From: Escherichia coli
GTDB lineage: Bacteria > Pseudomonadota > Gammaproteobacteria > Enterobacterales > Enterobacteriaceae
Direction: 5' to 3' (one strand)
Length of the DNA stretch: 64,000 nucleotides
Assembly: GCF_051903065.1 (NCBI RefSeq)
Contig: NZ_CP178438.1
A model generated the notes under the pieces. It made no database searches. It had not been told where the DNA came from and saw only the letters and a program-made list of their open reading frames with translations. The translations under genes were made by a program, and so were the position numbers. Below, one piece after another: positions 17,931 to 44,998 of the stretch; the stretch's first letter is position 1, and the number at the start of each line of letters is the position of its first letter.

Positions 17931-18371
17931 TCACTCATAATCAGAACAAGATGATGATGTGCCCTGAGATATAAGAAAATCATCAAGAGAACCTCCGGCT
18001 TTTATTGCTTCTGCAATAACAGAAGGCCGACGACCTTGTCCACTCCAGTACATTATTTGACCGTTATACTCATACCTGTACTTATTAGACTCTCCTGAAT
18101 CGTTTTTTCTGCCCGTCTGTAATTTTTTGCCAAATTCACGATACACATCTTCCGCCGTTACACCTGCGTCATCCATGTACTTTTTGATAATTGCCAAAGA
18201 ATCCTTCAACTCATTACGCTGCTCAATGGCCTTTTCAAGGTTATCCTTAACTTGATTGAAGTCTTCATCAGACATTTCCATGATCAACTTCCGGACAAGG
18301 TTGGAATTAAGAAGTGATGTACGAACAGTAGAGAGATCTTCATTCTCAACAGAAAACTTCTTCTTGCTCAT
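17931..18371 (-). CDS. H-NS-family nucleoid-associated protein (horizontally acquired paralog)
   Basis: 146 aa; C-terminal DNA-binding region …KYRYEYNGQIMYWSGQGRRPSVIAEAIKAGGSLDDFLISQ contains the H-NS TWTGQGR-type motif; N-terminal coiled-coil region. Confidence 0.8.
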   Translation of the reverse strand: MSKKKFSVENEDLSTVRTSLLNSNLVRKLIMEMSDEDFNQVKDNLEKAIEQRNELKDSLAIIKKYMDDAGVTAEDVYREFGKKLQTGRKNDSGESNKYRYEYNGQIMYWSGQGRRPSVIAEAIKAGGSLDDFLISQGTSSSCSDYE

Positions 18372-18500: not shown

Positions 18501-19250
18501 TAGGCTAGCCCCCTGAATCTCCAGTCAACCAATATCACTTAAATAAGTGATAATCTTAATATTAGTTTTTAGACTGGTCATTGGAAAACAGATGATTGAT
18601 GCCTCAGGACCGGAGAAACTCAGACGGCATACTGCACAGGAAAAGATCGCTAATGTTCAGAAGAGCTTTGAACCAGGAATGACGGTCTCCCTCGTTGCCC
18701 GGCAACATGGTGTAGCAGCCAGTTACTTCTCTGGCGCAAGCAATACCAGGAGGGAAGTCTTACTGCGGTGACTGCTGGGGAACAGATCGTTCCTGCCTCT
18801 GAACTTGCTGCTGCCATAAGGCAGATTAAAGAACGCCAGCGCCTGCCCGGAACAAAACGATGGAAAATGAACTCATTAAAGAAGCCGTTGAATATGGACG
18901 TGCAAAAAGTGGATAGCGCACGCTCCCTTATTGCCGGGGTGATGCACTGGGCGGTCACTACCGGCGGCTTCAACAGTGAAACAGTACAGGACGTCATGCC
19001 AGGAGCGGTGGAACGCCGCTTCGGCAACGAGCTTCCGGCGTCTCCAGTGGAGTGGCTGACAGATAATGGTTCATGCTACCGGGCTAATGAAACACGCCAG
19101 TTCGCTCGGATGTTGGGACTTGAATCGAAGAACACGGCGGTGCGGAGTCCGGAGAGTAACAGAATAGCAGAGAGCTTCGTGAAAACGATAAAGCGTGACT
19201 ACATCGTGTTCATGCCCAAGCCAGATGTTAATGACGGCATTGCATAACCA
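18501..19250 (+). mobile_element. IS2 remnant (internally deleted and 3'-truncated)
   Basis: IS2 left end TAGGCTAGCCCCCTGAATCTCCAG; OrfA-like [44 protein letters not shown], frameshift, then OrfB C-terminal segment …[24 protein letters not shown]…KRDYI… with the OrfB N-terminal half missing. Confidence 0.7.
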
Positions 19251-19499
19251 TGCAGTAGCAATCGAACATTACAATGCAGCATAGTTCTAAGTTATCGCTC
19301 GCCGCAGGTATATATGCGGCAGCGGATCAGTAATGGGTTAAATGATAACAGATGTCTGGAAGTATAGGGAGAAATTCCCTGAGGGATTCCCAAAAAATTT
19401 AGTAAACCAATATCATATTGGTATACCGTTGTTGTAAAATGTTCAGCCCTGCGTCAAGTGACAAGGTGTTTAGTATGAGTGGGGAATGTCGGAACCTGT

Positions 19500-20113
19500 T
19501 TAGGATTCTGTGTAAATGCCTTTTTTCAGAAGTGACAGGCAGTCACCGAACTCGATAATAAAGCGGCTCATTGCCATACACCTGTCCTTCAACGACACCG
19601 TCCATTTCTGGGACGCAGACTGGATTGCCAGCCACACCACTTTTTTCACCGAGTCGTCTGTCGGGAACACTTTACGCTTTTTGATCGCATGGCGGATCAC
19701 ACTGTTTAGTGACTCGATGGCATTCGTCGTATAGCGCACTTTGCGAATGTCCGTCAGATAAGCGAAGAACGTGGTAAGATTCGGTCAGTTAGCCTGCCAG
19801 CTCCGACTTATCTAGTGCTTGCTAGCCTGTCTCTTCCGTGGGTGCCTGATTAAATCTCTTTCAGGTCGCGAGTGACGGCTTTGTAGTCCTTCCATGACAC
19901 GAAGCGCAGGCTGTTGCGCACCATATGCACGATGCATAACTGGATGCTGGCCTCCGGATATACTGTGTTGATGGCATCTGGAAAGCCTTTCAGGCTATCT
20001 ACACAGGTGATGAGGATATCGTTCAGACCGCGGTTTTTCAGTTCAGTCAGCACATTGAGCCAGAACTTCGACCCTGTACACGATTCTGTGTGAAACAACG
20101 GGGAGCAGGTCAT
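19500..20113 (-). pseudogene. IS256-family transposase, 5'-truncated and frameshifted
   Basis: Two pieces (…[33 protein letters not shown]…IVHMVRNS… and …RYTTNAIESLNSVIRHAIKKRKVFPTDDSVKK…) in different frames; N-terminal third absent here. Confidence 0.65.
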
Positions 20114-20127
20114 CGCTTCCCAACCCG

Positions 20128-21006
20128 TTATTTCAGCGTGCCGAACTGTTTGTCTTTCAGTGCATATAGTCGGTCGAACTCAGCATAGGGCTCTCCCGTT
20201 TCAGCCGCGTGCCGGGTTTTAGCATCCAGAAGGTCGGGTAAAGGGATCCTATGATTCAGTGAGTGGTAAAGATCATAACCACTGACACAGATAACCCGCT
20301 TCCCTTTACCAAAAGCCGTCAGGCCTTCAGGCGTAAAGCCCATCCAACTGATAAAAACACCGCGTGTCCAGGTTGCCTTGGTACTGAGCTTTCCTTCAAA
20401 TACATGGAGGTCGGCAGCCGACGTTCTTTTCTGATGCCACTTTGCCTCCATCAGGTAAAATTCATCATTCAGTCGGAAACTTCCGTCAATCTGTTCGCCT
20501 GTATTTCGGAAAGACGAACGGGGAGCAAGCTTAAAGATACTGAACAGTTCAGCAAGCCAGGCTTCAAACCGAAAACCACGTGGATGTGGCGGCAGAGATT
20601 TCATCTCGTTCATTTCAGCGATAAGTGAATGCCAGTCAACACCATGCCATGCCTGGACAGGCTTAACGCCTTTGGCTTCATCGGTGTCAGCGTTTTCTAA
20701 GCGGGAAATCAGTGCAAGATAGTCATTACGGCTTTGTTCAGCCTGTTCAGGCATGGATTCCGTTTTATACTGCCAGAGCGCACCAAGAACCCGCAGAGCG
20801 GTCTCACGATCAACCTGTTTCAGCAAGCATCTAACTCGTTTGGCTTTTGACGTCCCCTCTTTCTGATAACGTTCATCATCAATATCAATGTTCAATTCTT
20901 CATCGAAAAAAGCAGACAAGGTGCGGTTAGAGAAATCCAGTATCCAGCCAGGATCGCTCTCGAACACAATATTAAACAGCCTCAAATCCTGCATTTTCAG
21001 TTTCAC
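20128..21006 (-). CDS. Mrr-like restriction endonuclease-fold protein with unknown N-terminal domain
   Basis: 292 aa; C-terminal …[25 protein letters not shown]… is a PD-(D/E)xK (D…E-A-K) core resembling the Mrr catalytic domain; N-terminal 130 aa unassigned. Confidence 0.55.
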
Positions 21007-21333
21007 GCCTACCTCCTTTTTTCACAGTATAACGGGATGAAAGTGGGGGAGGAAATGAGTCAGAACCTGTACACCAGCATTAGGGGATTCCGCGTCTGGT
21101 ACAAAGCAGACTATGAGAAGAGAGACGCTATAACATTTGAGTCCTACCAATCGATCTGTTCATTTCTATGAATGGCAGTAAATGCAAATAACCAGAACAA
21201 CCAAAGGTTTTTCGACTTATGTGTCACGAACGGAAGTAGATGGCAATCCATTGCATTACTTCAGGACGACTTTTCAGAAAGCGAGCTAAGGGCGTTGGCA
21301 TAAACTCAGGCATCGGATGCTGTTTTACAGGGT

Positions 21334-22065
21334 TCACCTGCCATCCAGTAGACGCCCCAGCCCACGACTGCAACCATAATTACGTTGACCAGAACCGTCA
21401 TGCTGCTTCGTCTCATACTTCACGAGATAACGGGCTCTCTCCATGGCTTTCTGCATCGCTTCCACATCACCACGCTTGACCCAGAGAACAGCGGATCCAC
21501 CAGATTTTTTGTCAGAATCCTTCCGGGTATCAGAACATCCACCAGGCACAGGCGTATCATCGGAAGAAGGGCGAGCATCAGATGATGTCGGTTTACGGAA
21601 AGGCGTCCGCCTGGAAAAATGAACCAGTCCATTACCCTGCCAGGGCTCAAGATGCAGAGCACTGCACCATGCCAGCTTGATCAGTGTCGCCAGCGAAGAA
21701 GGAACGGTGAAATCCCCTGGCGAGCACCAGGTATCTTTGTTGAGCAGTAATATCACGTGATAATGTTTCCTGCCTTTTTCCTTGCCAAACTCCCGACACC
21801 AGAAATAACGCAGAGTGGTTGCACGCACACGCTTGTTGGCACGTCGTTTTTTCCGCTGGTAAGCCTGAATTTTTGCTTTCAGGGATGCAAAAAAACGAGA
21901 AATCACCGCTGAATCTAAATCGGTATCCATGATGGTGGCAGGCATATACTCAGGGAAACGTAAATCCACCCGGATTAACGAGACGGCACGGTGTTGCGCC
22001 AGGGCACCGTTGAGAATACTTTCAAAACGGGATAACCAGTAAGCATTGTGTATTGGTTGATTCAT
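21334..22065 (-). CDS. YagK/YfjJ-family (inovirus Gp2-like) protein, paralog 3
   Basis: 243 aa; …KHYHVILLLNKDTW… core; preceded by about 1.5 kb of AT-rich ORF-free DNA. Confidence 0.6.
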   Translation of the reverse strand: MNQPIHNAYWLSRFESILNGALAQHRAVSLIRVDLRFPEYMPATIMDTDLDSAVISRFFASLKAKIQAYQRKKRRANKRVRATTLRYFWCREFGKEKGRKHYHVILLLNKDTWCSPGDFTVPSSLATLIKLAWCSALHLEPWQGNGLVHFSRRTPFRKPTSSDARPSSDDTPVPGGCSDTRKDSDKKSGGSAVLWVKRGDVEAMQKAMERARYLVKYETKQHDGSGQRNYGCSRGLGRLLDGR

Positions 22066-23579
22066 GATGAGAGATCTCCGTTGATTTGGATTGACTTCAC
22101 ATCATTAATCACCGCGGTAAAACTTTACGGCATCCGGCATTGAGCAATGCTACAACTTTCGGATTAAGAGTGATTGAAACGGAACAAACCATCCCGGAAC
22201 AAAAAGATAATTCTACACGCAGGGTAAAAACACTCAAGAACAGCGAATGGATTTAAAAACGACATGGACAACGAGAAAAGTCAGAAGGGAAAAGGATCCA
22301 CAGAACATTCAAACAAAACACCAGAAACGCAACCAGAACGCTTCCTGGTAATGCAAATCAACAACAACCCCAAAACCTACAGCTTAATCACACAACTCAA
22401 TCACGGATGCGAATGACACGTTTAAAACCTGTTTACAGATAACGCCGTTACACGATCATCCCCATCAGAATCGATTTTCCCTTCCTGAAAGCGTTACGTT
22501 TCACTACGCACCATAAAAACGATTAACCATCGATAACGTAAACTTCATCTGAATCAAAACACCAAAACCGTTCATCACACTTTCGCAATGCAAGAAGAGT
22601 CACATCATGACGAAAACAATGACCTTACACGGAAAAGAAAACGTCAGGAATCGTTAATGCCTCAATCTGATTGTTATCAAAACATCCAGAAAGTCGTTTA
22701 ACAGAATCGTCGTAAGCACATCGAAAAGAACGTCAGATTACTTCAGGAAAGTTCGGGTTGATTTAGCGTAAAGATACTTTTCTCATGCTAACGTCGAAAC
22801 TCGAAATATCAGGAAAGGTTAAACGTAACATCAGTAAAATCGAATAGCAGATTGATTGCTGAAGCAGAAAGGTTTTACAGCAGCATTAAACTGATTTTAG
22901 CTAACGTAAAGATTTACTAAACTGGATGTATTTCAGACAAAGCAATGTGTACAGCAATGCTTAACGAAAACACTTGTAGAAGTGTTTATGAAAATACGTG
23001 TATAACACTTACTGAAATGCTTAGTAAAAATACGTGTATATAGTATCATACCGACATTCTCAACTCTTCCAAACATCCATGCAGACTGAATGTTGATTAC
23101 CCGTTTTCACATCAGGCATGGTTCTTTACTGACCAAAAAACAAACTGGTTTACTCTTGAATTATTTTCTCTACCTCAGAAAACATGGTCTCAGGAATCTG
23201 TTATGGCTTCGTAGTTTCTGTTGTTCTTTTCATAAAAGTTATAAGTTATTGTCATAATCATACGATAATCACTTTATGTTAGTTTTTACTGTTACACGCT
23301 ACTGACTTTTTCAGTCATTGCCAGAAAGGGGCTCTTTTTACTTCCATTTCACCACTCAACAAATGCAAAACTCGTCCAGTAAAGCGGACCACCACTTGCT
23401 CACAAGCAACGAATCGTCTCCAGGAACAGCCCTCAAACATTGCAGAAACAAAAACAACAAAACCCTCATTATCACTGATGTTCGGAAAATTTCCATGACC
23501 CAAAAAACGAAATTTAAATGAGACGCATTATCATGCGTGTGATCAAAAAGACGTTATGGTAGCTTTCAGTTAAATGGTG

Positions 23580-24710
23580 CTATTTCTCATAAATCCACTT
23601 AACTTTTTTTACTGATTCATCCCAGAGAACCACTTTATCAGTAAAAAATGAATTATATAGATTGACGAGTTTTTCTGTTTCAGTTATTCCCAATGCATTA
23701 TGTATCAGTTGTAGATATGCTTTTATCCAGATTTCTTTACCCTCCCTCCACTTATCTATAAAAATTTCCAACTTACTTAATCGTTGATTTATAAAAAATG
23801 AATCAATATCATGAAAAAACTCAACAAGAAAACAGCACGAGATAATCTCAACAAAAAACAAATTCTCCTTAAAAGCATTATAAAACTTTATCAACACATA
23901 ACGAAAAACACCTCCTGTTAACCTTTCCTGTTCATAAAACAACAAGCCAAAAATAGGCGGAAATCTTTTAACCACACCACTTTTAATCCAGTAAGGATGA
24001 TGATTAGTCTTTACTGGCAGTGAATAAAAGAACAATTCGGTTTCTCTTTTCCCACCACAAACAGACAAAACAGTCTTATAAAGACTTTTTGAATCACTAT
24101 ATCCTGACACTCCAGACGAATTAGCAGGGTATTTTCTTTTTACTTTTTGCCTTAATGGAGCTGGAAGAATAATAAAACGGGATGGTAGATAACAATCGCT
24201 TTCAGAAGACCTGCATTCGCACACATGAAGATTTATATTTACATCCGGACAATTCAAAAACCACACAGAATAATTATCGCTCCGTTTGCAATATGAAACC
24301 CATGAATAAATTGCATAAAGTTCAGAAAGTACATCTAACTCTGCTTTTGATTTAAATGTGATACCGTTTCTTCGAATTCTCGTTTCCAGCGTTCTCCATG
24401 CCGGAGTTTTCAGTATCTCACGAACTTTTTTATTAAGTTCAACCAGCGATGGTCCCTGCTCCTGTTTATGTTTCTTCCTGCTGTTAATGATTTCTCTTTC
24501 TTTTACTAATTTTTTCTTACTTTTGGGTCCTTTTATCTTTCTTGGCAATGCTTCATTTAATCTGTGAACAGGATTTTGCTCTCTTCTTTTTTTGAGCTCA
24601 CAAAACCTCTCATAATGTTTTCTGCACAGTCTTTTCTCCACTGCCATTTTTACTGAGAAAACCTGATTGTTACAATTTTTTCTGACGCATTTGTTTTTAC
24701 GTCCGGTCAT
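23580..24710 (-). CDS. Hypothetical low-GC protein with N-terminal Cys cluster
   Basis: 376 aa, Lys-rich; N-terminal CVRKNCNNQ…CRKHYERFC suggests a zinc ribbon; no homolog recognised. Confidence 0.5.
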   Translation of the reverse strand: MTGRKNKCVRKNCNNQVFSVKMAVEKRLCRKHYERFCELKKRREQNPVHRLNEALPRKIKGPKSKKKLVKEREIINSRKKHKQEQGPSLVELNKKVREILKTPAWRTLETRIRRNGITFKSKAELDVLSELYAIYSWVSYCKRSDNYSVWFLNCPDVNINLHVCECRSSESDCYLPSRFIILPAPLRQKVKRKYPANSSGVSGYSDSKSLYKTVLSVCGGKRETELFFYSLPVKTNHHPYWIKSGVVKRFPPIFGLLFYEQERLTGGVFRYVLIKFYNAFKENLFFVEIISCCFLVEFFHDIDSFFINQRLSKLEIFIDKWREGKEIWIKAYLQLIHNALGITETEKLVNLYNSFFTDKVVLWDESVKKVKWIYEK

Positions 24711-32346: not shown

Positions 32347-35300
32347 TTATATCTGCCCGCCTACACCTTTAAACTTCTCAATAAACGCGACGATCTTCTG
32401 GAAAACCGTCTGTTTTTTCGTCTTATATTGCGGATTTAACGGACTGAGTTTTGGCAATGTCTCGTTTAATTCCGTGCCATTTTCGGTTGCGTATTCGCGT
32501 TTTAAAGACGTGCGAATATAGCGTTTCGCCGCCTCTTCATTGAGATTTTCTTCTTTGATCAATGCTGCTGCTTCACGTTGCTGTTCGCGTTGAGCAAAGG
32601 TAAAAAACGCGTCAATGATGCTGGCTTTATCCGGCAAATCATCCAGGTTCGTTTGCTGAATAAAATCGACCACCAATCCTTCTTTGGCACGGTTCCCAAG
32701 GCTTGAACGAATTAAGCGTTTGACCTCTTCGGTCATTTCGCCCTTACCTTTGTTTTGTCTGTTGTGTTCGAAAATCAGTCCAAGGATATAATCCAGGTTT
32801 ATTTCCTGAGACTTCAGCAAATCGACCTCAAAAACCACGTCATCCCAGTCGGTGGTTGATTTTTCTTTTTTGTCAGCTTCTTTCTCACGGCGCTGCCAGT
32901 CACGAATATCGTTATAGGCTGAACGGTAATCCTGAATCTTGCGATCAGCAGGGAGACGAATCGTTTGTAATTCAGCGAACTTTTCATCATCCACATAATG
33001 TTCTGCTTTGAATTTTTCTACCGCAACAGGATCGCTAAGATCGATTTGTTGCAGGGCTTTCAGCATGGCAAATTCATCATAGTTTTGCAGGATGTTCTCG
33101 GCACGCAGGTATTCACCAAACAGTTTTACGAAGTCTTTCTTCTCTTTTTCACTTTCAATATTGGCAGGGTCAGGGAACCGTTGTTCCAGTTCTGAAACTA
33201 CTGCCATAAAGCCGCGTTTAGCTTCACCAGTGGCAGCATCAGTAAAGCCTTCCATATACTCTGCATAACTCTTTTCTAACACCACATTTTTGGTATTTTT
33301 ATCACCAAACAGCGTTATGGCATCAATGGTTGAGCGTTCCAGATCCCGGAAAGTGACGATGTTACCGAAGGTTTTAGTGGCGTTATAAATGCGGTTGGTG
33401 CGGGAAAATGCCTGCATCAGGCCGTGAAAACGCAAGTTTTTATCGACGAATAGCGTGTTCAATGTTGGAGCATCGAAGCCGGTTAAAAACATCCCCACGA
33501 CAATTAACAGATCGATATCTTGATTTTTAACCCGTTGGGCTAAATCACGATAGTAGTTCTGAAAACCGTTACTGTCGGTGCTGAAGTTAGTTTTAAAATA
33601 GCTGTTATACTCACGAATTGCAGCGTCAAGAAACTCTTTAGCACTGCTGTCCATTGCGCTGGTATCAAAAGTTTCATCGGAAATTTCACCAATGGCATTT
33701 TGCTCTTCATTGGCGGCAAAGGAGAAGATTGTCGCAACACGCAGCGGTTTATAAGTAGCCGATTTATTAGCTGCTTCCTCTTGTAACCGTTTAAACGTAG
33801 CGTAATAGGCTTTCGCGGCATCCACGCTACTCACTGCCAGCATGGCATTAAAGCCTTTGGAACTTGGGAAAGTACGGTGGGTCTTCTGGCGGAAGTTATT
33901 CAGAATATATTGCGTAATTTCCTGTATACGCATGGGATGAAGAAACGCCTGCTGATTTTCAGCCGCACTCAGTTTTTTCTCGTCGGTTTCTGTCTCTAAA
34001 GACTTAAACTGTGGCCGCACATCGTTGTAGTCCACCTTGAATTTGAGCACTTTTTCATCACGAATCGCATCGGTAATCACATATGAATGCAATTCACGAC
34101 CAAATACGCTGGCGGTCGTTTCTGAGCCTAAAGCGTTTTCCGGGAAAATAGGGGTACCGGTAAAACCAAACTGATAATAGCGTTTGAATTTCTTCTTCAG
34201 ATTTTTCTGCGCTTCTCCAAACTGGCTGCGGTGACATTCATCAAATATAAACACCACTTGCTGATTGTATACAGGCAGGTCGCTTTCTGCTTTCATCAGG
34301 TTATTAAGTTTCTGAATAGTGGTGACGATAATTTTGTTATCGTCCTTATCCAGATTTCGTTTAAGACCTGCTGTATTTTCCGAGCCGTTAACACTATCTG
34401 GCGAAAAACGCTGATATTCCTTCATGGTCTGGTAATCGAGGTCTTTCCTGTCGACCACAAAGAAGACTTTATCAATAAAGTCCAGTTCTGTTGCCAGACG
34501 TGCGGCTTTAAAGCTGGTCAGGGTTTTACCAGAACCGGTTGTGTGCCAGATAAAGCCACCGCTTTCGGGGGTAGACCAGTTTTTCGCTTTATAGGAGCTG
34601 TTGATTTTCCATAAGATACGCTCAGTGGCGGCAATCTGGTACGGTCGCATCACTAGTAGCGTTTGGCTAATATCGAACACGCTGTAGTTCACTAAGACAT
34701 TAAGCAGAGTATGTTTCTGGAAAAAGGTAGCGGTAAAGTCTTTGAGGTCTTTAATCAGCGTGTTGTCTGATTTCGCCCAATTCATGGTGAAATCAAAACT
34801 GTTTTTATCGCGCTTTGTGGTGTTGGCAAAATAACGGGTATCGGTGCCGTTAGAAATGACAAACAGTTGCAGATACTTAAACAGGGAATTTTCGCTGTTA
34901 AAACTCTCTTTACTGTAACGATGTATTTGGTTGAAAGCCTCACGAATCGCCACGCCGCGCTTTTTCAGTTCGATTTGTACCAGTGGTAAGCCATTAACCA
35001 GGATCGTGACGTCATAACGGTTAGCATGAGAACCCGCCTGTTCAAACTGCTGGATAATCTGCACCTTATTGCGCATGAGATTCTTTTTATCTATCAGATA
35101 GATATTTTCAAGACGCCCGTCATCAAAAATAAAGTCGCAGATATAGTCGATATGAATTTTACGGGTTTTATCCAGGATGCCATCGCTGGGGTTGTCCAGA
35201 TACTGCTCCGTGAAACGCCGCCACTCGCTGTCATTAAACACCACACCATTGAGGTTCTGAAGCTGTTCCCGAACATTGGACAGCATCGCCGACTGTGATT

Positions 35301-35463
35301 TTACCGAAATAAATTCATAGCCCTGATTCCGCAGGTCCTGAATCAGTTCCCGTTCCAGGTCCGATTCGCTCTGGTAGCTGTCGCCTGTTTGCTCAGCTTT
35401 GATGTACTTATCAAGGACGATAAAGTTATTGGATTCAGCAATGGTGTGTGTTTGATGAGTCAT
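32347..35463 (-). CDS. hsdR: Type I restriction enzyme R subunit (Type IC, EcoR124-like HsdR)
   Basis: 1038 aa (same length as EcoR124I HsdR as recalled); helicase motifs TGSGKT and DECHRSQ. Confidence 0.95.
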
Positions 35464-35584: not shown

Positions 35585-36865
35585 TTAGTTACTGATAGTT
35601 TCAGGTTTGGGAAAACTGAACAGTAAATCACGATAGTACTCGTATTGTTTCTGGCGCAACTCGATTTCACGCGGGAGGCCTTCGGTGATGGAGTTTGTCA
35701 GAGTGTCGAATTTATCGAGTATTGCGACGATACGAGCTTGTTCCTTAAGTGATTTTTCGTGATCTTTAGGATATGGAACCGGAATCATAATTTTTGAAAA
35801 ACCATTAATGAGTAGTGTATTAACTTTTGTTCTGGCTACATACTTTGCTTTTTCAGAAATAAACGAATCGGTTTGCATGTAATAGGAAATAAATTTTGGA
35901 TTCAAAGAATGTCGAAAAGCATAACAGTGATCATGAATAGCGATATCGTCATCCCCAAGCCATGCCACTGCTTTACCAACGTCTTCTACAGTCTCCCCCA
36001 CGTCAGTTATCACGACATCTCCATGTTTGGCATAGCGTAATGACGCTGCCATATCAGCTCTAACCTGTGATAACGAATGAGTTGTGTAAACACCATATCG
36101 TGTATATATCTCACCATAATGGATTACACTGATACCACCATCTTCTACATAATCTGCTTTAGTAAAACGTTTTCCACGAATAAACTCACCAATTTCCCCC
36201 AAAGTCTTCCACTCAACCTCACCCTCTTTAAAACTCAACAACTGGTCGCGATAGTAGTTGTACTGTTTTTTACGCATGGTAAGCTCTGCTGTAAGCTCTG
36301 CTGTAAGCTCAGTAAATTTATCCAGAATCCGAACGATTTCAGACTGGATGGCAAGGGATTTTTCCGGATTGCCCGGGCAGGGGATGGGGATGAGTAGTTT
36401 TGACATCAATGCATTTGAGCTTAGATTCGGCTGTGCTCCGCCCCCTGCAAGGATATAAATAGTCTCTGTATTTAACAATAAAAAATGGTATAAATAATTA
36501 TTGTTTAGAATATTTTCTTTGGGTATAAATTTCCCAACACGTTGGTTAAGATAACATTTTATTCCTTTTTTATAAATTCCCACTTTTCCTGTAGTGGCAC
36601 CTGACATTGCAATCAATATATTTCCCATAGATACCTCAAAGGAGGATAAATCTTCCTTGTAATCATTTAGTGAAAAGTATTTCACCTCATCTAAGTCAAC
36701 ATTAAACCCATCTATATTTGTGATTCTAACTATCGGTAACCCAGTTTCTTTAAATAAGCTGCTTTTAAATGCAAATCCATTTTTAAAATCACAAACATCC
36801 TTCAGGGTTTTCCACTCAACCTCAACCCCATCCAGCAATTTTTCCAGATAACTCAACTCGCTCAT
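35585..36865 (-). CDS. hsdS: Type I specificity subunit HsdS (Type IC)
   Basis: Two target-recognition domains separated by the conserved …[23 protein letters not shown]… region with the TAEL repeat; ATG overlaps the hsdM stop. Confidence 0.9.
36279..36310. repeat. 12-bp tandem repeat in hsdS (TAEL repeat, 2 copies plus a partial)
   Basis: GTAAGCTCTGCT x2 then GTAAGCTC on the plus strand, encoding TAEL-TAEL in the HsdS central region. Confidence 0.7.
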
Positions 36866-38416
36866 TTCTGCACCCCGCAGCCTTCAATTTCAGCCACAAT
36901 CGCATCAATATCTTTGCGCAACTGGTCGATTTTGCTGACCGTGGTTTTCAGCTCAGCATTCAGCTCACCGATATCGATAATTTCGCGAGTATCTTTCGCT
37001 TCAACATAGCTGCTCACCGACAGGTTATAGTCATTCGCTACAACGGCTTCAAACGCGACAGATTTCGCCAGATGAGCAACATCTTCCTTGCTGGCAAATA
37101 CCTGCATAATCTGTTCGATATGGGCATCGGTCAGGATATTGTTGTTGGTCTCTTTTTTGAACAGTTCGCTGGCGTCAATAAACTGAACTTTGGTATCGGT
37201 TTTATGTTTAGACAGCACCAGAATATTGACGGCAATAGTGGTGCCAAAGAACAGGTTCGGTGCCAGTGAAATCACGGTTTCGACATAGTTATTATCGACC
37301 AGATACTGACGGATTTTCTGCTCCGCGCCGCCACGGTAAAAAATACCCGGGAAGCAAACAATCGCAGCGCGACCTTTGGCCGAAAGATAGTTCAGCGCAT
37401 GTAGTACAAAGGCGAAGTCAGCTTTGGATTTGGGGGCCAGGACGCCAGCCGGGGCAAAACGTTCATCGTTAATCAGCGTCGGGTCATCGCTGCCAATCCA
37501 TTTCACCGAATACGGCGGGTTAGAAACGATGGCATCAAACGGTTTTTCATCTCTGAAGTGCGGCTCAGTCAGTGTATTGCCCAACTTGATATCAAACTTG
37601 TCGTAGTTGATGTTGTGCAAAAACATGTTCATACGCGCCAGGTTATAGGTCGTATGGTTGATCTCCTGACCAAAAAAGCCTTCTTCGATGATATGGTCAT
37701 CAAACTGCTTTTTCGCCTGCAACAACAGCGAACCGGAACCTGCGGCCGGGTCGTAGATTTTGTTAACGTGGGTCTGCCCGTGCATAGCCAGTTGTGCAAT
37801 CAGCTTAGAGACGTGCTGCGGTGTAAAGAACTCGCCGCCTGACTTACCAGCATTCGCGGCATAGTTAGAAATCAGGAACTCATAGGCATCGCCGAACAGG
37901 TCAATCTGATGTTCGTTAAAGTCGCCAAGCTTTAACCCTTCAACCCCTTTCAGAACCGCAGCCAGGCGGGCATTTTTATCCTTAACGGTGTTACCCAGGC
38001 GGTTACTGGTGGTATCGAAATCAGCAAACAAACCTTTGATGTCAGCTTCTGAAGGGTAACCGTAAGCAGAACTTTCGATAGCAACGAAGATGCTGTTTAA
38101 ATCTGCATTCAGTCTGTCATTGGTATTTGCTTTCGCAGCTACGTTGCAGAAAAGCTGACTTGGGTAGATGAAGTAGCCTTTGGTTTTGATGGCATCGTCT
38201 TTAATGTCATCAGTTATTACGCTGTCATCCAGTTTCGCATAACAGATACTGTCATCACCGGCTTCAATATAGCTGGAAAAATTTTCGCTGATAAAACGGT
38301 AGAAAAGCGCGCCCAGAACGTATTGCTTAAAGTCCCATCCATCGACCGAACCTCTGACATCGTTAGCAATTTGCCAGATCTGGCGATGAAGCTCCGCGCT
38401 GCTGAAGACTGGTCAT
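36862..38416 (-). CDS. hsdM: Type I methyltransferase HsdM (Type IC), apparent frameshift near codon 8
   Basis: C-terminal 389 aa intact (NPPY motif, …[11 protein letters not shown]…). ATG 38416-38414 with AAGGA RBS reads MTSLQQR, but the conserved …[23 protein letters not shown]… continues in another frame. Confidence 0.8.
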
Positions 38417-39914: not shown

Positions 39915-41969
39915 ATGGTTCAGGATTCATCAGCATTAGCCCCCTTCTTTCGTGCTCAAATTGAAAAAAATAATCAATACAATTCAGTTTGGGGCAAACA
40001 CTACCGCCAGCTTGTAGAACAGATTCAGGCCGAAAAACCAAACTTTTCTGAAGCCACGATTCGGCAGGTATGGTATGAACGTGACAATGGTGTCTCCAGC
40101 CTGATGCAAGGAGGGATGTCATTGGTTGAATTTGAAAATGCACAAAAAGACCTTCTAACGCTCACCCGTCAGATAGCAGAAGAGTGTACACAAGAAAATT
40201 ATAATCGGGTCATTGAACGCCTTATCAAACTTAAAGCGGACGGAGTATTAAATAAGGTATATAGGGCTCTTTGTAATCGTGCTTTTGCAGCAATATACCC
40301 ATCAAAAATTAGCAGTGTCGTGAATGTTAATAATTTTTTTAGTTGCTACAATTATTGCAACAACCATTTCCAGCTAGGTCTTTCCGGAGAACGGGAGTGG
40401 CTGGCTCGCAATGTTGATCTTAAAGAAACGCTAAATCGTGCGCTGGGTGATGATATCGACCCTATTGAGCTGAATATGTCACTTTGGCATCTCTATGCGT
40501 ATGAAATTCAGGATAAAAATGCTATCGGTTTAGTTGGAAGCGAAAGTGCTTTACAAGAAAATGAGCAAGAAGATGATGTTATAAGTTCGCCATTGCCTAA
40601 AAACACAATTCTCTATGGCCCGCCAGGTACAGGTAAAACATATCGTACTATTGAGCTTGCTGTACAAATTTGTGATCCGATCGCTTACTCCCTGCAGGAG
40701 GGTAAGGATGAGAGTGAAAAACGTCGCGAGTTGAAAAAGATTTATGATCAGCTTATCAAAGAAAATCGAGTGCGTTTTATCACCTTTCATCAGAGCTTTG
40801 GTTATGAAGAGTTTATTGAAGGTTTAAGAGCTGAGACTACTGATGACGGTAATGTAAAATACGAAATAAAGGCAGGTATTTTTAAGCAGATATGCGAGGA
40901 TGCCGCCTTTGGTCATGCTGGTGCGCAGGAAATGTTAGATAGCGCACTTACTCGCCTACAAGAACGTTTATCTGAAGGTGAAAATATCACGCTGGAAACA
41001 CAACAGGGTAAGGCCTTCCAGCTGACGTATAAAAGTCAAACCAACTTTGGAATTTTCCCGTCACAATCGAAAAAAGAGGATTTAGGACAGGGTTACAATG
41101 CCTATTTGAAGGATATTCGGCAAGTTTATCAGGATCCACGAGCAAAAGTACATAATCCATCTTATGTACGCAGTATCCTTAACTATTTAATTAATCAACG
41201 TTATCTGCCTCTGAATACTCAGAGCGTAGCTTCAGAAAAAAAGGAAAACTATGTTCTCATTATTGATGAAATAAATCGGGGTAATATTTCAAAAATTTTC
41301 GGTGAACTAATTACCCTTATTGAGCCATCTAAACGGGCTGGTGAGCCAGAATCGCTTAGCGTATTGCTGCCATACTCTTCCACTCCATTTAGTGTGCCGA
41401 ATAACCTTTATTTAATTGGTACCATGAACACTGCTGATCATTCGCTTACTGCACTTGATACTGCACTACGTCGCAGATTTGATTTTGAAGCGATGCTGCC
41501 AGATATTACTGTTCTGAAAGATACTGTCATTAAAGGTATTGATCTGCCTCGTCTATTGCAGACGCTTAACGATCGCATCCAGGTTTTATACGATAGAGAA
41601 CATATGCTGGGGCATGCTTTTTTTATCCCTGTTGTGCAGGCAAAAGAAGACGAAGCTCTGGCATTTGAAAGATTCAAACGGATTATGCGAAATAAGATAC
41701 TACCATTGCTGGAAGAATATTTTTACAATGACTGGCAAAAAATTCGCATGGTACTGGCTGATAACCAAAAAGAGGAAGCACCAGATCTTCAATTTGTACG
41801 TGAGGTGAAATACCAGAAAAAGTATGCCGATCTCTTTGGTGATAACGGAACAGATGACTTGGGAACCAGTTTTCACCTGGCAGCAGAGGATGACAACGTT
41901 TGGGACAATCCAATCGCCTGGCAGCAAATTTATGCACCTCAAAAAGAAAAACGCAGGAGTGCGGAATGA
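39915..41969 (+). CDS. McrB-family AAA+ GTPase with non-canonical N-terminal domain
   Basis: 684 aa; Walker A LYGPPGTGKT, Walker B LIIDEINRGN, McrB-type GTMNTAD motif; the first ~230 aa is a helical region of unknown type. Confidence 0.85.
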   Translation: MVQDSSALAPFFRAQIEKNNQYNSVWGKHYRQLVEQIQAEKPNFSEATIRQVWYERDNGVSSLMQGGMSLVEFENAQKDLLTLTRQIAEECTQENYNRVIERLIKLKADGVLNKVYRALCNRAFAAIYPSKISSVVNVNNFFSCYNYCNNHFQLGLSGEREWLARNVDLKETLNRALGDDIDPIELNMSLWHLYAYEIQDKNAIGLVGSESALQENEQEDDVISSPLPKNTILYGPPGTGKTYRTIELAVQICDPIAYSLQEGKDESEKRRELKKIYDQLIKENRVRFITFHQSFGYEEFIEGLRAETTDDGNVKYEIKAGIFKQICEDAAFGHAGAQEMLDSALTRLQERLSEGENITLETQQGKAFQLTYKSQTNFGIFPSQSKKEDLGQGYNAYLKDIRQVYQDPRAKVHNPSYVRSILNYLINQRYLPLNTQSVASEKKENYVLIIDEINRGNISKIFGELITLIEPSKRAGEPESLSVLLPYSSTPFSVPNNLYLIGTMNTADHSLTALDTALRRRFDFEAMLPDITVLKDTVIKGIDLPRLLQTLNDRIQVLYDREHMLGHAFFIPVVQAKEDEALAFERFKRIMRNKILPLLEEYFYNDWQKIRMVLADNQKEEAPDLQFVREVKYQKKYADLFGDNGTDDLGTSFHLAAEDDNVWDNPIAWQQIYAPQKEKRRSAE

Positions 41970-43276
41970 AATCTTCCAGTCATTTCACTGTGTTCGAATA
42001 CGGGCATTTAGTGAGTGAGGAAGGTGATGCCCGTATAAATAATGCGGTAGTGCTACCTGCAGACCTATTTAAATGGCTTGAGCTGCGCTGTCTGAAAGAC
42101 GATGCTGATAATACTCATCGTTTGCTCACCCTTAGCAGCCGGAATGGAGTAAAAACGCTGCAGGTAAAAAACTATGCAGGAGTAATCTCACTGCCAGGGG
42201 GGCGATTTCTCGAAATCCTGCCTAAAACAGGTCAGGATAATGAGGATACTGTTCGTCAACAAATACTGATGATGTTACGTACGTTAAAATCATTTCGTCA
42301 TATTGCCTCCTCTGAATCTGGCGTCAAAATATCTAAAATGCCTCTGATGGACATCTTTATTCAACAATTTATAGAGAGCGTGCGTAAGATTGTGCAGAGA
42401 GGGTTAAAACGTGACTATTTACGTCAGGAAGATAATCTTCCATGGATAAAAGGAAGATTACGGATCTCTGCACAATTAAGCAAAAACTGTATTAGGCGGG
42501 ATCTTTTTCAGGTGGAGTATGACGAGTACAGCGTCAATCGTCTGGAAAACCGGATACTCAAAACTGCAATCAATAAGATTAGTCGCCAGACCAGTAATCC
42601 ACAATTATTACAGCAGATAACACAGCTGCAGTTTCACTTTGAAAATATCACGTCAGTTCATGATGCTTATATAGCTTTCGAGCAGTTACACTTTGATAGA
42701 CACATGCATCACTATGAGCAAGCATTAGCGTGGGCGAAGATGATTTTATTGGGCGATTCTCCACACTGTATGTATGGGGATGTTAATGCTTTTTCACTGC
42801 TTTTCCCGATGGAGGCTGTTTTTGAATCTTTTGTGACGACATGGATGCGTTATCGTTATTATGATAAATGGCGAGTGGACGCACAGGTAAGTTCAAAAAA
42901 TCTGATTAGTTATAACGGTAAAGCTTTATTTAAGCTGCGGCCTGATATTTGTTTACGGCCTCGTAAAAGTACTACTGGTTCAGTTATTACCTGTGATATT
43001 AAATGGAAGATAGTAAATGGCAGAAAGGACAGTCTTGAACAATCTCAAGCCGATCTCTACCAAATGCTTGCCTATGGATTGAATTACCAGGAGGGGGAAG
43101 GTGATATGATTTTGATATACCCCTATCATAACGGATTTAATCAGCCATCTCCTCATCCTTATGAATTTAGCCATCAGAAGGAAAATAGGTTACGTTTATG
43201 GGTTGTACCTTTCTTTATTGGCGAGAGTTTACAGACATCAGAGTTGCATTTTCCTAGTGGGGCTGAATTTATTTAG
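41966..43276 (+). CDS. McrC-family nuclease partner
   Basis: ATG overlaps the mcrB-like stop (ATGA); C-terminal PD-(D/E)xK-like …RPDICL…CDIKWK…; size and linkage typical of McrC. Confidence 0.75.
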   Translation: MKSSSHFTVFEYGHLVSEEGDARINNAVVLPADLFKWLELRCLKDDADNTHRLLTLSSRNGVKTLQVKNYAGVISLPGGRFLEILPKTGQDNEDTVRQQILMMLRTLKSFRHIASSESGVKISKMPLMDIFIQQFIESVRKIVQRGLKRDYLRQEDNLPWIKGRLRISAQLSKNCIRRDLFQVEYDEYSVNRLENRILKTAINKISRQTSNPQLLQQITQLQFHFENITSVHDAYIAFEQLHFDRHMHHYEQALAWAKMILLGDSPHCMYGDVNAFSLLFPMEAVFESFVTTWMRYRYYDKWRVDAQVSSKNLISYNGKALFKLRPDICLRPRKSTTGSVITCDIKWKIVNGRKDSLEQSQADLYQMLAYGLNYQEGEGDMILIYPYHNGFNQPSPHPYEFSHQKENRLRLWVVPFFIGESLQTSELHFPSGAEFI

Positions 43277-43338: not shown

Positions 43339-44268
43339 TCACCCCCTAAAAACCTCTTTCCGATGCCACTCCACAAACCCCTCAAAAGGGTAATTTTTAC
43401 GCACCTGTGGCAACGCAATAGTTTTCCCGTCAAAATCCCAGAATAATCTCTCAACGATCCCTCCGCCGTTTACCGCATCCGAGACCAGTATCCGCATATT
43501 TTCATCCAGGCCAATCGATCCTTTATCAAAGGCTTTATGGTGTATTGCGCAAAGTGCCAGACCATTGGGGATTTCACAAGGGCCGCCGTGCTGTTTCCAT
43601 TTTATATGCGCCGCTTCCAGCGCGACGGTGGTGTCGTCGTGGCGCATATTAAAGCCACATATCGCGCACTGGTATTTATAAGCGCGTAATACATTTTTGC
43701 GAAATAACGGGTCGCGCTGTTTACGGATTTGCTGGAGATCAAAACCCAGCTCGTCAGCAATTTCTTCCTGAATACTCTCGGTGAAGTGCGCTTCGAGTAT
43801 CTGTTGCGCCAGAGTATTGATGAGTTTTTTATTGCCGGTTACCAGGGCGTAGTGCTGTTCATCGAAACCGCCTGCAACGTGGTATTCGTTCAGTTCCTTC
43901 ACTGGCGGTTGTCGGCTGCTCCCTGCTGTTGAGCAACGCTCGGCATTGTGTAATTGCCAGAATCCGTCGCCTTGTAATCGCCAGAACGGCATATCAGGTC
44001 GGTACTGTGAACGCTGTGGCCCAAAACGTTCCAGTAAACTGTGCAGAGGTTCGTAGATTTCCGAGCCATAATCGAAAAGGCGCGGATGTCCATGCAGGTA
44101 TCCCGCTAATACGTATAGCAATAACAATGGCTTATGCGGCGCGCGCTGTTCACCCTTATGCCAGATTTTTATATTGGCAATTGCCTGCTGTAGCGATTTA
44201 CTGGAAGCCATTGATATCCCTGGCAGTGAAATAATTGCGATCATGCTCGCAAATTTTCTGCTGTTCAA
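43339..44268 (-). CDS. HNH endonuclease (HNH_2-type, putative restriction enzyme)
   Basis: C-terminal …YKYQCAICGF…AAHIKWKQHGGP…NGLALCAIHHKAFDKG…; about 190-aa N-terminal domain of unknown function; start may be an internal Met. Confidence 0.65.
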   Translation of the reverse strand: MNSRKFASMIAIISLPGISMASSKSLQQAIANIKIWHKGEQRAPHKPLLLLYVLAGYLHGHPRLFDYGSEIYEPLHSLLERFGPQRSQYRPDMPFWRLQGDGFWQLHNAERCSTAGSSRQPPVKELNEYHVAGGFDEQHYALVTGNKKLINTLAQQILEAHFTESIQEEIADELGFDLQQIRKQRDPLFRKNVLRAYKYQCAICGFNMRHDDTTVALEAAHIKWKQHGGPCEIPNGLALCAIHHKAFDKGSIGLDENMRILVSDAVNGGGIVERLFWDFDGKTIALPQVRKNYPFEGFVEWHRKEVFRG

Positions 44269-44347: not shown

Positions 44348-44998
44348 ATGAATAAACTCCCCGATCATCTTCCGCGGCGGTATATTATCGAAGCTATTCA
44401 TTTATGGGATGCGGGAGAAACTCATCAGTTCCAGCCTGCACGGTTGTATGAGATTGAATATCATGGCCGACGTTACCCCTCGAAGGCGATTGCTGGCATC
44501 GCAGCGACATTGATGACGGGGACGCAATTTACCCCTGCGGATTTCACCGGCGGAATAAAATCTAAATGCGTCAAGCTACTTATAGATCAGGGATTTCATA
44601 TTCATCAGGATAAAGCCGCTGCGGCTCCCATAGCCGATGTTCTGTTCCCGGATGAGTTGCCGTCGCAGGGGACCTACGTTGAAGGTGCGGCGATAAAGGT
44701 GACGGTAAACAGCTATGAACGCGATAAAAACGCTCGCGAGAAAGCAGTCGAATATCACGGATGCCAGTGCAACGTATGCGGCGTTGATCTGGTGAAGATC
44801 TATGGCGATATCGCTGAGGGCTTTATCCATATGCATCACCTGGTGCCGCTTTCAGCCATTAAAGAGGATTACCTGCTGGATCCAGTTAATGATTTACTTC
44901 CTGTGTGCCCTAATTGCCATGCGATGTTGCACCGACGCAAACCACCGTTTACGCCGGAGGAGTTAAAAGCGTTGATGGATGCGAATAAATCAAATTAA
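44348..44998 (+). CDS. HNH endonuclease with N-terminal putative DNA-recognition domain
   Basis: …CQCNVCGVDL…HMHHLVPLS…PVCPNCHAMLHR… is a classic HNH; about 110-aa N-terminal domain unassigned. Confidence 0.7.
   Translation: MNKLPDHLPRRYIIEAIHLWDAGETHQFQPARLYEIEYHGRRYPSKAIAGIAATLMTGTQFTPADFTGGIKSKCVKLLIDQGFHIHQDKAAAAPIADVLFPDELPSQGTYVEGAAIKVTVNSYERDKNAREKAVEYHGCQCNVCGVDLVKIYGDIAEGFIHMHHLVPLSAIKEDYLLDPVNDLLPVCPNCHAMLHRRKPPFTPEELKALMDANKSN

Follow-up and report, generated by a model that had tools for sequence, protein, structure and literature searches.

A candidate immune nuclease of AbiJ-NTD2/Mrr architecture in an Escherichia coli island

The window analyzed here is a stretch of 64,000 nucleotides (nt) from Escherichia coli (assembly GCF_051903065.1, contig NZ_CP178438.1), and the element in question is a gene on its minus strand encoding a protein of 292 amino acids (aa). 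This protein is probably a single-polypeptide sensor-nuclease of the abortive-infection type, in which an N-terminal AbiJ-NTD2 domain would do the sensing or regulation and a C-terminal Mrr-type PD-(D/E)xK domain would be the DNA-cutting effector. The reading is carried by the identities of the two domains, the conservation of the catalytic residues, the swapping of modules among other proteins, the stand-alone status of the gene, and its residence in defence islands and mobile elements. The gene and its parts are located as follows.

20128-21006, minus strand: nuclease gene, a complete reading frame of 292 codons plus TAA; product identical to RefSeq WP_000769116.1, "restriction endonuclease"
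21011-21016, minus strand: ribosome-binding site GGAGGT, 4 nt from the GTG start (21004-21006)
20692-21006, minus strand: residues 1-105, assigned to AbiJ-NTD2; six-helix domain with a beta-hairpin behind the first helix
20632-20691, minus strand: residues 106-125, variable linker of low conservation
20161-20631, minus strand: residues 126-282, Mrr-type PD-(D/E)xK module, including a conserved C-terminal helix K263-x-R265-x-A-x-E269-T-G
20563-20565, minus strand: E148, acidic and invariant, in the RG-x-x-FE motif of the first core helix (from alignments)
20485-20487, minus strand: D174, catalytic Asp of GEQIDGSF (from alignment)
20440-20448, minus strand: E187-A188-K189, the ExK of PD-(D/E)xK, within LMEAKW (E187 at 20446-20448, K189 at 20440-20442)

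The open reading frame (ORF) is the one described in the initial annotation of the window, and the two motifs cited there, GEQIDGSF (with D174) and YLMEAKWH (with E187 and K189), are present. The GTG is likelier to be the start than an in-frame ATG at codon 5, because the latter would sit 16 nt from GGAGGT, which is too distant.

The two domains of the protein

The only Pfam match of the E. coli protein is Mrr_cat (PF04471), over residues 144-248 with E = 6.5e-5. A set of 46 diverse full-length homologues, 31-54% identical to the query, was collected by scanning 1.84 billion representatives with HMMER, unfiltered; 43 of them matched the same family independently at E <= 0.001 (best 1.1e-10). 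When aligned, these sequences all share E148, D174 and E187-A188, and at least 90% of them keep K189 (one K to R), which gives the classical E...D...ExK arrangement. Nor does E148 vary among 80 genome copies, the best of the 516 loci confirmed in a scan of one genome per species over ~100,000 species. This 80-genome set was drawn with an 11-sequence alignment and is biased to the two catalytic motifs, so that the residues selected by that pattern provide no independent test there.

An AlphaFold model built on the homologue alignment (predicted local distance difference test, pLDDT, 93.3; predicted TM-score 0.82) gives the nuclease domain a restriction-endonuclease-like alpha/beta fold. The structural search also returned the immune nuclease effectors Can2, Card1, Cap4, Avs4, Shedu, and HamA. 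Conservation marks the C-terminal half as a true nuclease domain of the Mrr-type PD-(D/E)xK kind, its active site intact, and metal-dependent DNA cleavage is its predicted activity. The restriction-endonuclease-like core that the initial annotation had proposed is thus borne out by the Mrr_cat match and the conserved catalytic residues, and neither of the two outcomes it had named as contrary, a best match to a non-nuclease family or catalytic residues not conserved in homologues, was found.

What is the N-terminal domain? AbiJ-NTD2 was defined computationally in 2013 by Anantharaman, Makarova, Burroughs, Koonin, and Aravind (PMC3710099, Table 2 and Abi section) as a mostly helical domain of ~100 aa with a strand after the first helix, fused to AbiJ HEPN, Ymh HEPN, MRR-type restriction endonuclease (REase; gi 91784007), HKD nuclease, or TIR domains. 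The domain of the E. coli protein is predicted by AlphaFold 2 to have a helix at residues 5-15, strands at 16-18 and 21-22 (hairpin 16-22), and five further helices up to residue 104; residues 1-100 modelled alone gave a pLDDT of 93.3. Two motifs run through the family, G20-Y/W-V/I-L23-x-F25-S...F33-F and S53-K54-A-K/N-R57-x-R59.

In a Foldseek search of AFDB50 the domain matched the N-termini of five kinds of proteins (template modelling score 0.75-0.87, 23-40% identity), namely Abi_C proteins of ~260-280 aa, DUF4145 proteins, a CHP02391 protein, TIR or Pycsar-type TIR proteins, and Mrr proteins; no HKD fusion was among the 50 AFDB50 matches listed. The CHP02391 protein we take to belong to the Ymh family, via TIGR02391. 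When annotated plasmids were searched by tblastn, the domain matched "abortive infection family protein" genes of Bradyrhizobium, Rhizobium, Pseudomonas, and Aeromonas (37-44% identity, E 3e-14 to 1e-7). The hhalign comparison of the domain profile with two such proteins gave probabilities of 99.6% and 99.8% (E 1.6e-24 and 6.7e-30) over residues 1-90, with the signature motifs kept in both targets (GYVL-FS-RTF--FF and G-SKA-R-R-F), and in one target residues 175-245 match Pfam Abi_C (E 4e-13). When the 100-aa domain profile was run against a large database, the proteins returned were all of ~200 aa or less, which was uninformative on fusion partners.

On the profile alignment with Abi_C protein N-termini and the fold search together, the N-terminal domain is AbiJ-NTD2. 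AbiJ-NTD1 and NTD3-5 differ from it in size or description, and none of the 46 members has a Pfam AbiJ_NTD3/4/5 match. The initial annotation had left this region unassigned and had given it 130 aa. The globular part is instead ~105 aa long and is followed by the variable 20-aa linker, and the AbiJ-NTD2 plus Mrr fusion is already catalogued in PMC3710099, though residues 1-125 have no model in current Pfam, NCBIfam, PADLOC or PHROGs.

Homologues are labelled "DUF3644 domain-containing" in several databases, and according to PMC3710099 many AbiJ_NTD2 sequences were erroneously placed in the DUF3644 (HEPN) Pfam model. We reject this label for the domain, as none of the 46 members matches DUF3644 in current Pfam. 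The Rx4-6H motif of HEPN is impossible in the E. coli domain because residues 1-105 contain no histidine. Many of the short "DUF3644" proteins in databases are decayed fragments of the kind described below. A full-length homologue with 44-45% identity lies on chromosome 1 of Paraburkholderia xenovorans LB400 (locus L068). From the gi range this strain is presumably the source of gi 91784007. No meaningful match was found among PDB sequences, whether the query was the whole protein, the family profile or that of the N-domain.

The order along the protein is N-domain, linker, nuclease, and a short tail, and over the 80 genomes the N-domain has a mean pairwise identity of 50%, against 25% in the linker and 58% in the nuclease. 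The nuclease module also stands behind other N-termini at 45-50% identity. The GEQIDGSF/LLEAKW/KxRxAAETG subfamily has another, unassigned N-terminus of ~150 aa in ~30 representatives (33-protein alignment), which might be AbiJ-NTD1; the module further occurs at the C-terminus of a 1240-aa LRR-Roc-COR protein (P0216), and in Tle1-like and integrase-containing proteins. As these alignments have it, both halves are mobile modules. By the same comparisons, the invariant residues G20, L23, F25, F33, S53, K54, and R57 must serve a function of the N-domain itself and not an effector-specific interface, because they do not differ between DNase and RNase effectors.

Distribution and surroundings of the gene

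The 516 loci fall mainly in Alpha-, Beta-, and Gammaproteobacteria, and the catalytic and N-domain motifs are invariant across these three classes. A single intact two-domain ORF was found in 79 of the 80 loci. In E. coli the gene is present in 462 of 5,426 complete genomes (8.5%), nearly all copies being chromosomal; 427 E. coli records, O157:H7, ST131, and NU14 included, carry it in full length at 99% identity or more. The region 19000-23000 of the window is 100% identical to a chromosomal island of E. coli strain GDSC2BY4G.

Outside chromosomes, the family was found in 409 plasmid records (223 from Klebsiella; 236 conjugative) and in none of 50,697 phage records. A variant of 88.6% identity occurs widely on plasmids of Klebsiella. 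On one of them, pKPN-9a0d of K. pneumoniae (L095, 7001-7879), the gene stands alone between a bacteriocin-type ABC exporter/CAAX immunity cluster and the VapBC and CcdAB modules.

Decayed copies exist as well. One (L007, 5001-5869), which recurs in more than 24 contigs, combines D174A (GEQIAGSF) with a 1-nt frameshift in the final N-domain helix, another (L010, 5001-5844) has a frameshift in the linker, and a third, the copy of K. pneumoniae ATCC 13883 (L018, 8001-8705), is broken; truncated protein clusters were found in E. coli and Klebsiella. What had looked like a two-gene version, a separate N-domain acting in trans beside an Mrr gene, turned out to be such frameshifted copies, and this version was rejected; L007 also bears D174A.

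Neighbouring ORFs were clustered within ~8 kb either side of the gene at the 80 loci. No family was adjacent in more than seven loci by clustering, with AbiEii rising to nine in a sensitive profile search, and no second ORF with the N-domain was found in these regions. The gene is thus stand-alone. Its neighbours are frequently defence genes: of 20 immediate neighbours drawn at random (seeded) outside the AbiE-Hachiman block described below, six are strong, near full-length PADLOC matches (PifA, Mokosh MkoB, QatA, RmrA, PDC-S15, and a ZorD-like Mrr nuclease). At other loci Gabija GajA or a type II REase lies next door, TIR and SIR2 genes are near in Acinetobacter, and SMODS plus SLATT genes are beside it in Burkholderia ubonensis. 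In Pectobacterium the gene is cargo of an integrative and conjugative element (ICE), between the integrase/anti-restriction genes and TraG/TraU, with Shedu and SLATT genes nearby.

One lineage has the order AbiEi-AbiEii-[gene]-HamA-HamB, the last two being Hachiman. AbiEii stands immediately upstream and co-oriented at nine of the 80 loci (L034, L035, L038, L039, L064, L060, L075, L059, and L084), the nuclease gene lying at ~8001 in each. At eight of them the two genes are -4 to +71 nt apart, and in L084 the ORFs overlap by 70 nt; AbiEii occurs nowhere else within ~8 kb either side. The AbiEii proteins are of three types, two of them ~32% identical and the third without significant BLAST match to either, and the nuclease genes linked to them lie at 4-5 separate places on a crude neighbor-joining tree. 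The decayed copies L007-L009 likewise follow AbiEi-AbiEii. This arrangement suggests a recurrent variant in the form of a three-gene AbiEi-AbiEii-nuclease operon. The E. coli copy has no AbiEii upstream.

In the window, the following genes surround the nuclease gene or belong to its defence complement.

About 19500-20113, minus strand: remnant (pseudogene) of an IS256-family transposase, directly downstream; context only, not part of the system
21334-22065, minus strand: "inovirus Gp2 family" (YagK/YfjJ-like) gene, upstream neighbour
2217-3440, plus strand: "PDDEXK-like family protein" of 407 aa, PADLOC candidate PDC-S26 (E 7e-34)
32347-35463, 35585-36865 and 36862-38400: hsdR, hsdS, and hsdM of a type I restriction-modification (R-M) system, in a defence cluster beside nanC/fimB
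39915-43276: McrB/McrC-family pair of the same cluster
43339-44268: phosphorothioate-DNA-binding HNH restriction enzyme of the same cluster
44348-44998: another HNH endonuclease of the same cluster

The flanks are as the initial annotation had them, insertion sequence (IS) debris of the IS256 family on one side and the Gp2-like gene on the other, and no methyltransferase is adjacent, the nearest being hsdM ~16 kb away at ~36.9-38.4 kb. The C-terminus of the protein is not truncated by the IS256 remnant, because homologues elsewhere have the same length. The Gp2-like neighbour is confined to the E. coli island lineage and also occurs on plasmid CP057032.1; a conserved Gp2/YfjJ-like partnership was rejected, since this gene is unrelated to the upstream gene in Pectobacterium and absent from the list of conserved neighbours. 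The window is rich in defence genes, and none of them adjoins the nuclease gene.

Several other observations concern the island. The two hypothetical genes after the PDC-S26 candidate (3485-4021 and 4455-5300) have no PADLOC match. A group II intron reverse transcriptase/maturase gene (ltrA, 10691-12214, plus strand) lies among IS3 fragments. An H-NS-family gene (17931-18371, minus strand) is placed ~2 kb from the nuclease gene and may bear on silencing of the island. Between the Gp2-like gene and a YeeP-like GTPase gene a very AT-rich stretch (~33% GC) holds a gene (23580-24710, minus strand) for a hypothetical protein of 376 aa without PADLOC match, which is conserved with the island, plasmid CP057032.1 included. 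In related strains the hsd operon encloses an anticodon nuclease of the PrrC type, apparently absent from the window. In the island of GDSC2BY4G (L001) the place of the R-M/McrBC cluster is occupied by a gene for an "AbiJ-NTD4 domain-containing protein" (33657-34391), beside an IS5-family insertion that disrupts fimH; it is a second gene of the AbiJ-NTD class in this family of islands.

Proposed mode of action and its alternatives

If the protein is a sensor-nuclease, the N-domain would keep the nuclease inactive in the uninfected cell. A cue from a phage or another mobile element would be recognized by the N-domain or act through it, and the nuclease would then be released, possibly by a change of oligomeric state. 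Once free, it would cleave DNA of the invader, perhaps also of the host, and so halt the infection. In this scheme we infer that the nuclease is autoinhibited, what kind of trigger it has, which DNA it cuts, and that the outcome is defence. A generic sensor-plus-toxin hypothesis for all AbiJ-NTD fusions has already been offered in PMC3710099, and Shedu provides a precedent, being a single-protein PD-(D/E)xK immune nuclease whose highly variable N-domain is allosterically inhibitory (10.1101/2023.08.10.552793). Phage mutants that escape AbiJ map to single-stranded DNA-annealing proteins (PMC13064643), which is a lead toward a trigger and not evidence for one. The initial annotation had suggested a single-gene effector either of modification-dependent restriction or of abortive infection. 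The stand-alone, abortive-infection part of this view is retained, and modification-dependent restriction becomes the weaker alternative.

A number of points weigh against the proposed sensor-nuclease. No experimental evidence for the Mrr-fused family or for any AbiJ-NTD2 protein was found in the searchable literature, and AbiJ itself has no known mechanism (PMC13064643). Scans of the protein against NCBIfam, PADLOC, and PHROGs gave no matches at E <= 1. The association with defence islands is circumstantial. Six defence genes among 20 sampled neighbours would be far above the genome-wide rate of such genes, that background rate being an estimate and not a computed control. The island of the E. 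coli copy is decaying, with IS fragments and pseudogenes throughout and AT-rich flanking DNA, and a promoter and terminator scan gave nothing above shuffle expectation, with no promoter-like site in the 327-nt upstream spacer. The decayed copies would fit a costly gene and equally a dispensable one.

Could the nuclease serve the mobile elements that carry it? As a factor of competition or maintenance it would exclude or destroy rival plasmids and ICEs, or act as an addiction-type toxin. The plasmid records point this way, many of them conjugative and most from Klebsiella, as do the ICE cargo in Pectobacterium, the position beside VapBC and CcdAB maintenance modules on a Klebsiella plasmid, the absence from phages, and a 2026 preprint reporting single-protein HEPN systems (Ishtar) that act against conjugative plasmids. 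However, most of the 80 sampled loci place the gene among anti-phage systems, carriage on plasmids and ICEs is common for defence systems anyway, and there is no conserved antitoxin-like partner. We regard this role as rather unlikely; it differs from the sensor-nuclease mostly in target and not in mechanism.

Type IV, or modification-dependent, restriction of the Mrr kind is an unlikely explanation too. Here the N-domain would read modified bases and Mrr_cat would cut the incoming DNA, with no need for a methyltransferase partner. In Mrr-type enzymes the catalytic part is Mrr_cat, the structural neighbours of the nuclease include AspBHI and MspJI, which are modification-dependent, the gene is solitary, the N-domain has an invariant basic patch (S53-K54-x-x-R57-x-R59), and RefSeq names the product a restriction endonuclease. 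Against this stands the absence of an Mrr_N winged helix or any reader fold, Mrr_cat being the sole Pfam match in the 46 members, while the Type IV models of PADLOC (mREase_IV) give no match. Moreover, the N-domain is common to RNase (HEPN) and TIR effectors, which do not act on DNA, and it is mildly acidic (median isoelectric point ~5.5-5.8), though net charge discriminates weakly. An immunity protein is therefore a more plausible reading of these sequences than a classical restriction enzyme.

That the E. coli gene is an inert passenger, a remnant of the decaying island that looks whole yet is silent or dispensable, is highly improbable: the IS fragments and pseudogenes, the H-NS-family gene and AT-rich flanks, the upstream spacer without a promoter-like site, and the truncated or dead copies in E. 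coli, Klebsiella, and elsewhere would agree with it, but the ORF is intact in nearly all sampled species and in full length in hundreds of near-identical E. coli records, and the invariance of the motifs across three proteobacterial classes requires purifying selection at the level of the family.

For the sensor-nuclease, the model of the N-domain raises a further idea about the switch. In structure comparison the predicted six-helix fold comes closest to PYD, CARD, and DED domains, and homotypic polymerisation is the switch of CARD and PYD domains in animal inflammasomes. By this analogy AbiJ-NTD2 might be a bacterial death-fold-like domain, and the protein, together with its HEPN and TIR siblings, might be activated through homotypic polymerisation triggered by infection. 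We hold this to be a doubtful proposition. None of the 46 members matched Pfam Death, CARD, PYD or DED, and the N-domain profile found no death-like family among PDB sequences. A partner in cis, as for effector-associated domains, was rejected, as no second N-domain ORF was found within ~8 kb either side at the 80 loci; a signal at L080 was spurious. If the idea were true, a death-fold assembly switch would govern an entire class of immune effectors encoded by single bacterial genes, and ~10% of lineages would have it wired as the third gene of AbiE operons.

Should the sensor-nuclease prediction hold, a single-gene immune nuclease is missing from the PADLOC 2.0 and NCBIfam defence libraries, although about one in twelve complete E. 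coli genomes carry it, as do Klebsiella plasmids, mostly conjugative, in the hundreds. A tractable E. coli entry to the AbiJ-NTD2 sensor common to HEPN, TIR, and nuclease effectors would be gained as well, and finding one AbiJ-NTD2 trigger would likely explain the whole class. If the gene has no function, the gain is only a better annotation, "AbiJ-NTD2/Mrr-type nuclease" in place of "restriction endonuclease" or the erroneous "DUF3644".

Comparison with known systems

The architecture was catalogued and computationally described in 2013 and will not surprise a specialist. The E. coli protein is a credible and widespread defence candidate. By the family definitions tested, it belongs to Mrr_cat and to AbiJ-NTD2, and falls outside Type IV Mrr, AbiJ proper, DUF3644/HEPN, and Shedu. 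Its closest relatives are the AbiJ-NTD2 plus Mrr REase fusions of PMC3710099, which have the same two domains in the same order without architectural difference. That work listed the fusion only; the E. coli member, the distribution, the structure model, and the contexts were not described there.

AbiJ (Abi-859 of Lactococcus) and the Abi_C proteins are also single-gene systems for which a sensor-effector logic is predicted, and many Abi_C proteins share AbiJ-NTD2 with the E. coli protein. However, the effector of AbiJ is a C-terminal HEPN RNase, whereas here a PD-(D/E)xK DNase is predicted, and the protein matches neither Abi_C nor the AbiJ model of PADLOC. With E. coli Mrr and the other Type IV enzymes of Mrr_N plus Mrr_cat type it has in common Mrr_cat with its D...ExK and a solitary gene without methyltransferase. 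In contrast to them, its N-domain is not the Mrr_N winged helix, and its nuclease is of a distinct subfamily with the C-terminal KxRxAAETG helix.

Shedu (SduA) follows the same one-polypeptide plan, with a swappable N-terminal domain that is regulatory (here by prediction) and a C-terminal PD-(D/E)xK nuclease; the latter is the DUF4263/SduA_C domain in Shedu and a different nuclease subfamily in the E. coli protein. Mrr-type effectors of Avs/NLR-like STAND proteins, ZorD of Zorya, and the CARF nucleases Can2 and Card1 use the same kind of nuclease as executioner of an immune sensor. They differ in the sensing part, which in the E. coli protein is the 105-aa helical domain alone, with NTPase, helicase, and cyclic-nucleotide sensor all absent. 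A small terminal alpha-helical domain placed on alternative REase, TIR or HEPN effectors also characterizes the effector-associated and bacterial death-like domains (Kaur, Iyer, Burroughs, and Aravind 2021, PMC8195603), and in this respect AbiJ-NTD2 resembles them.

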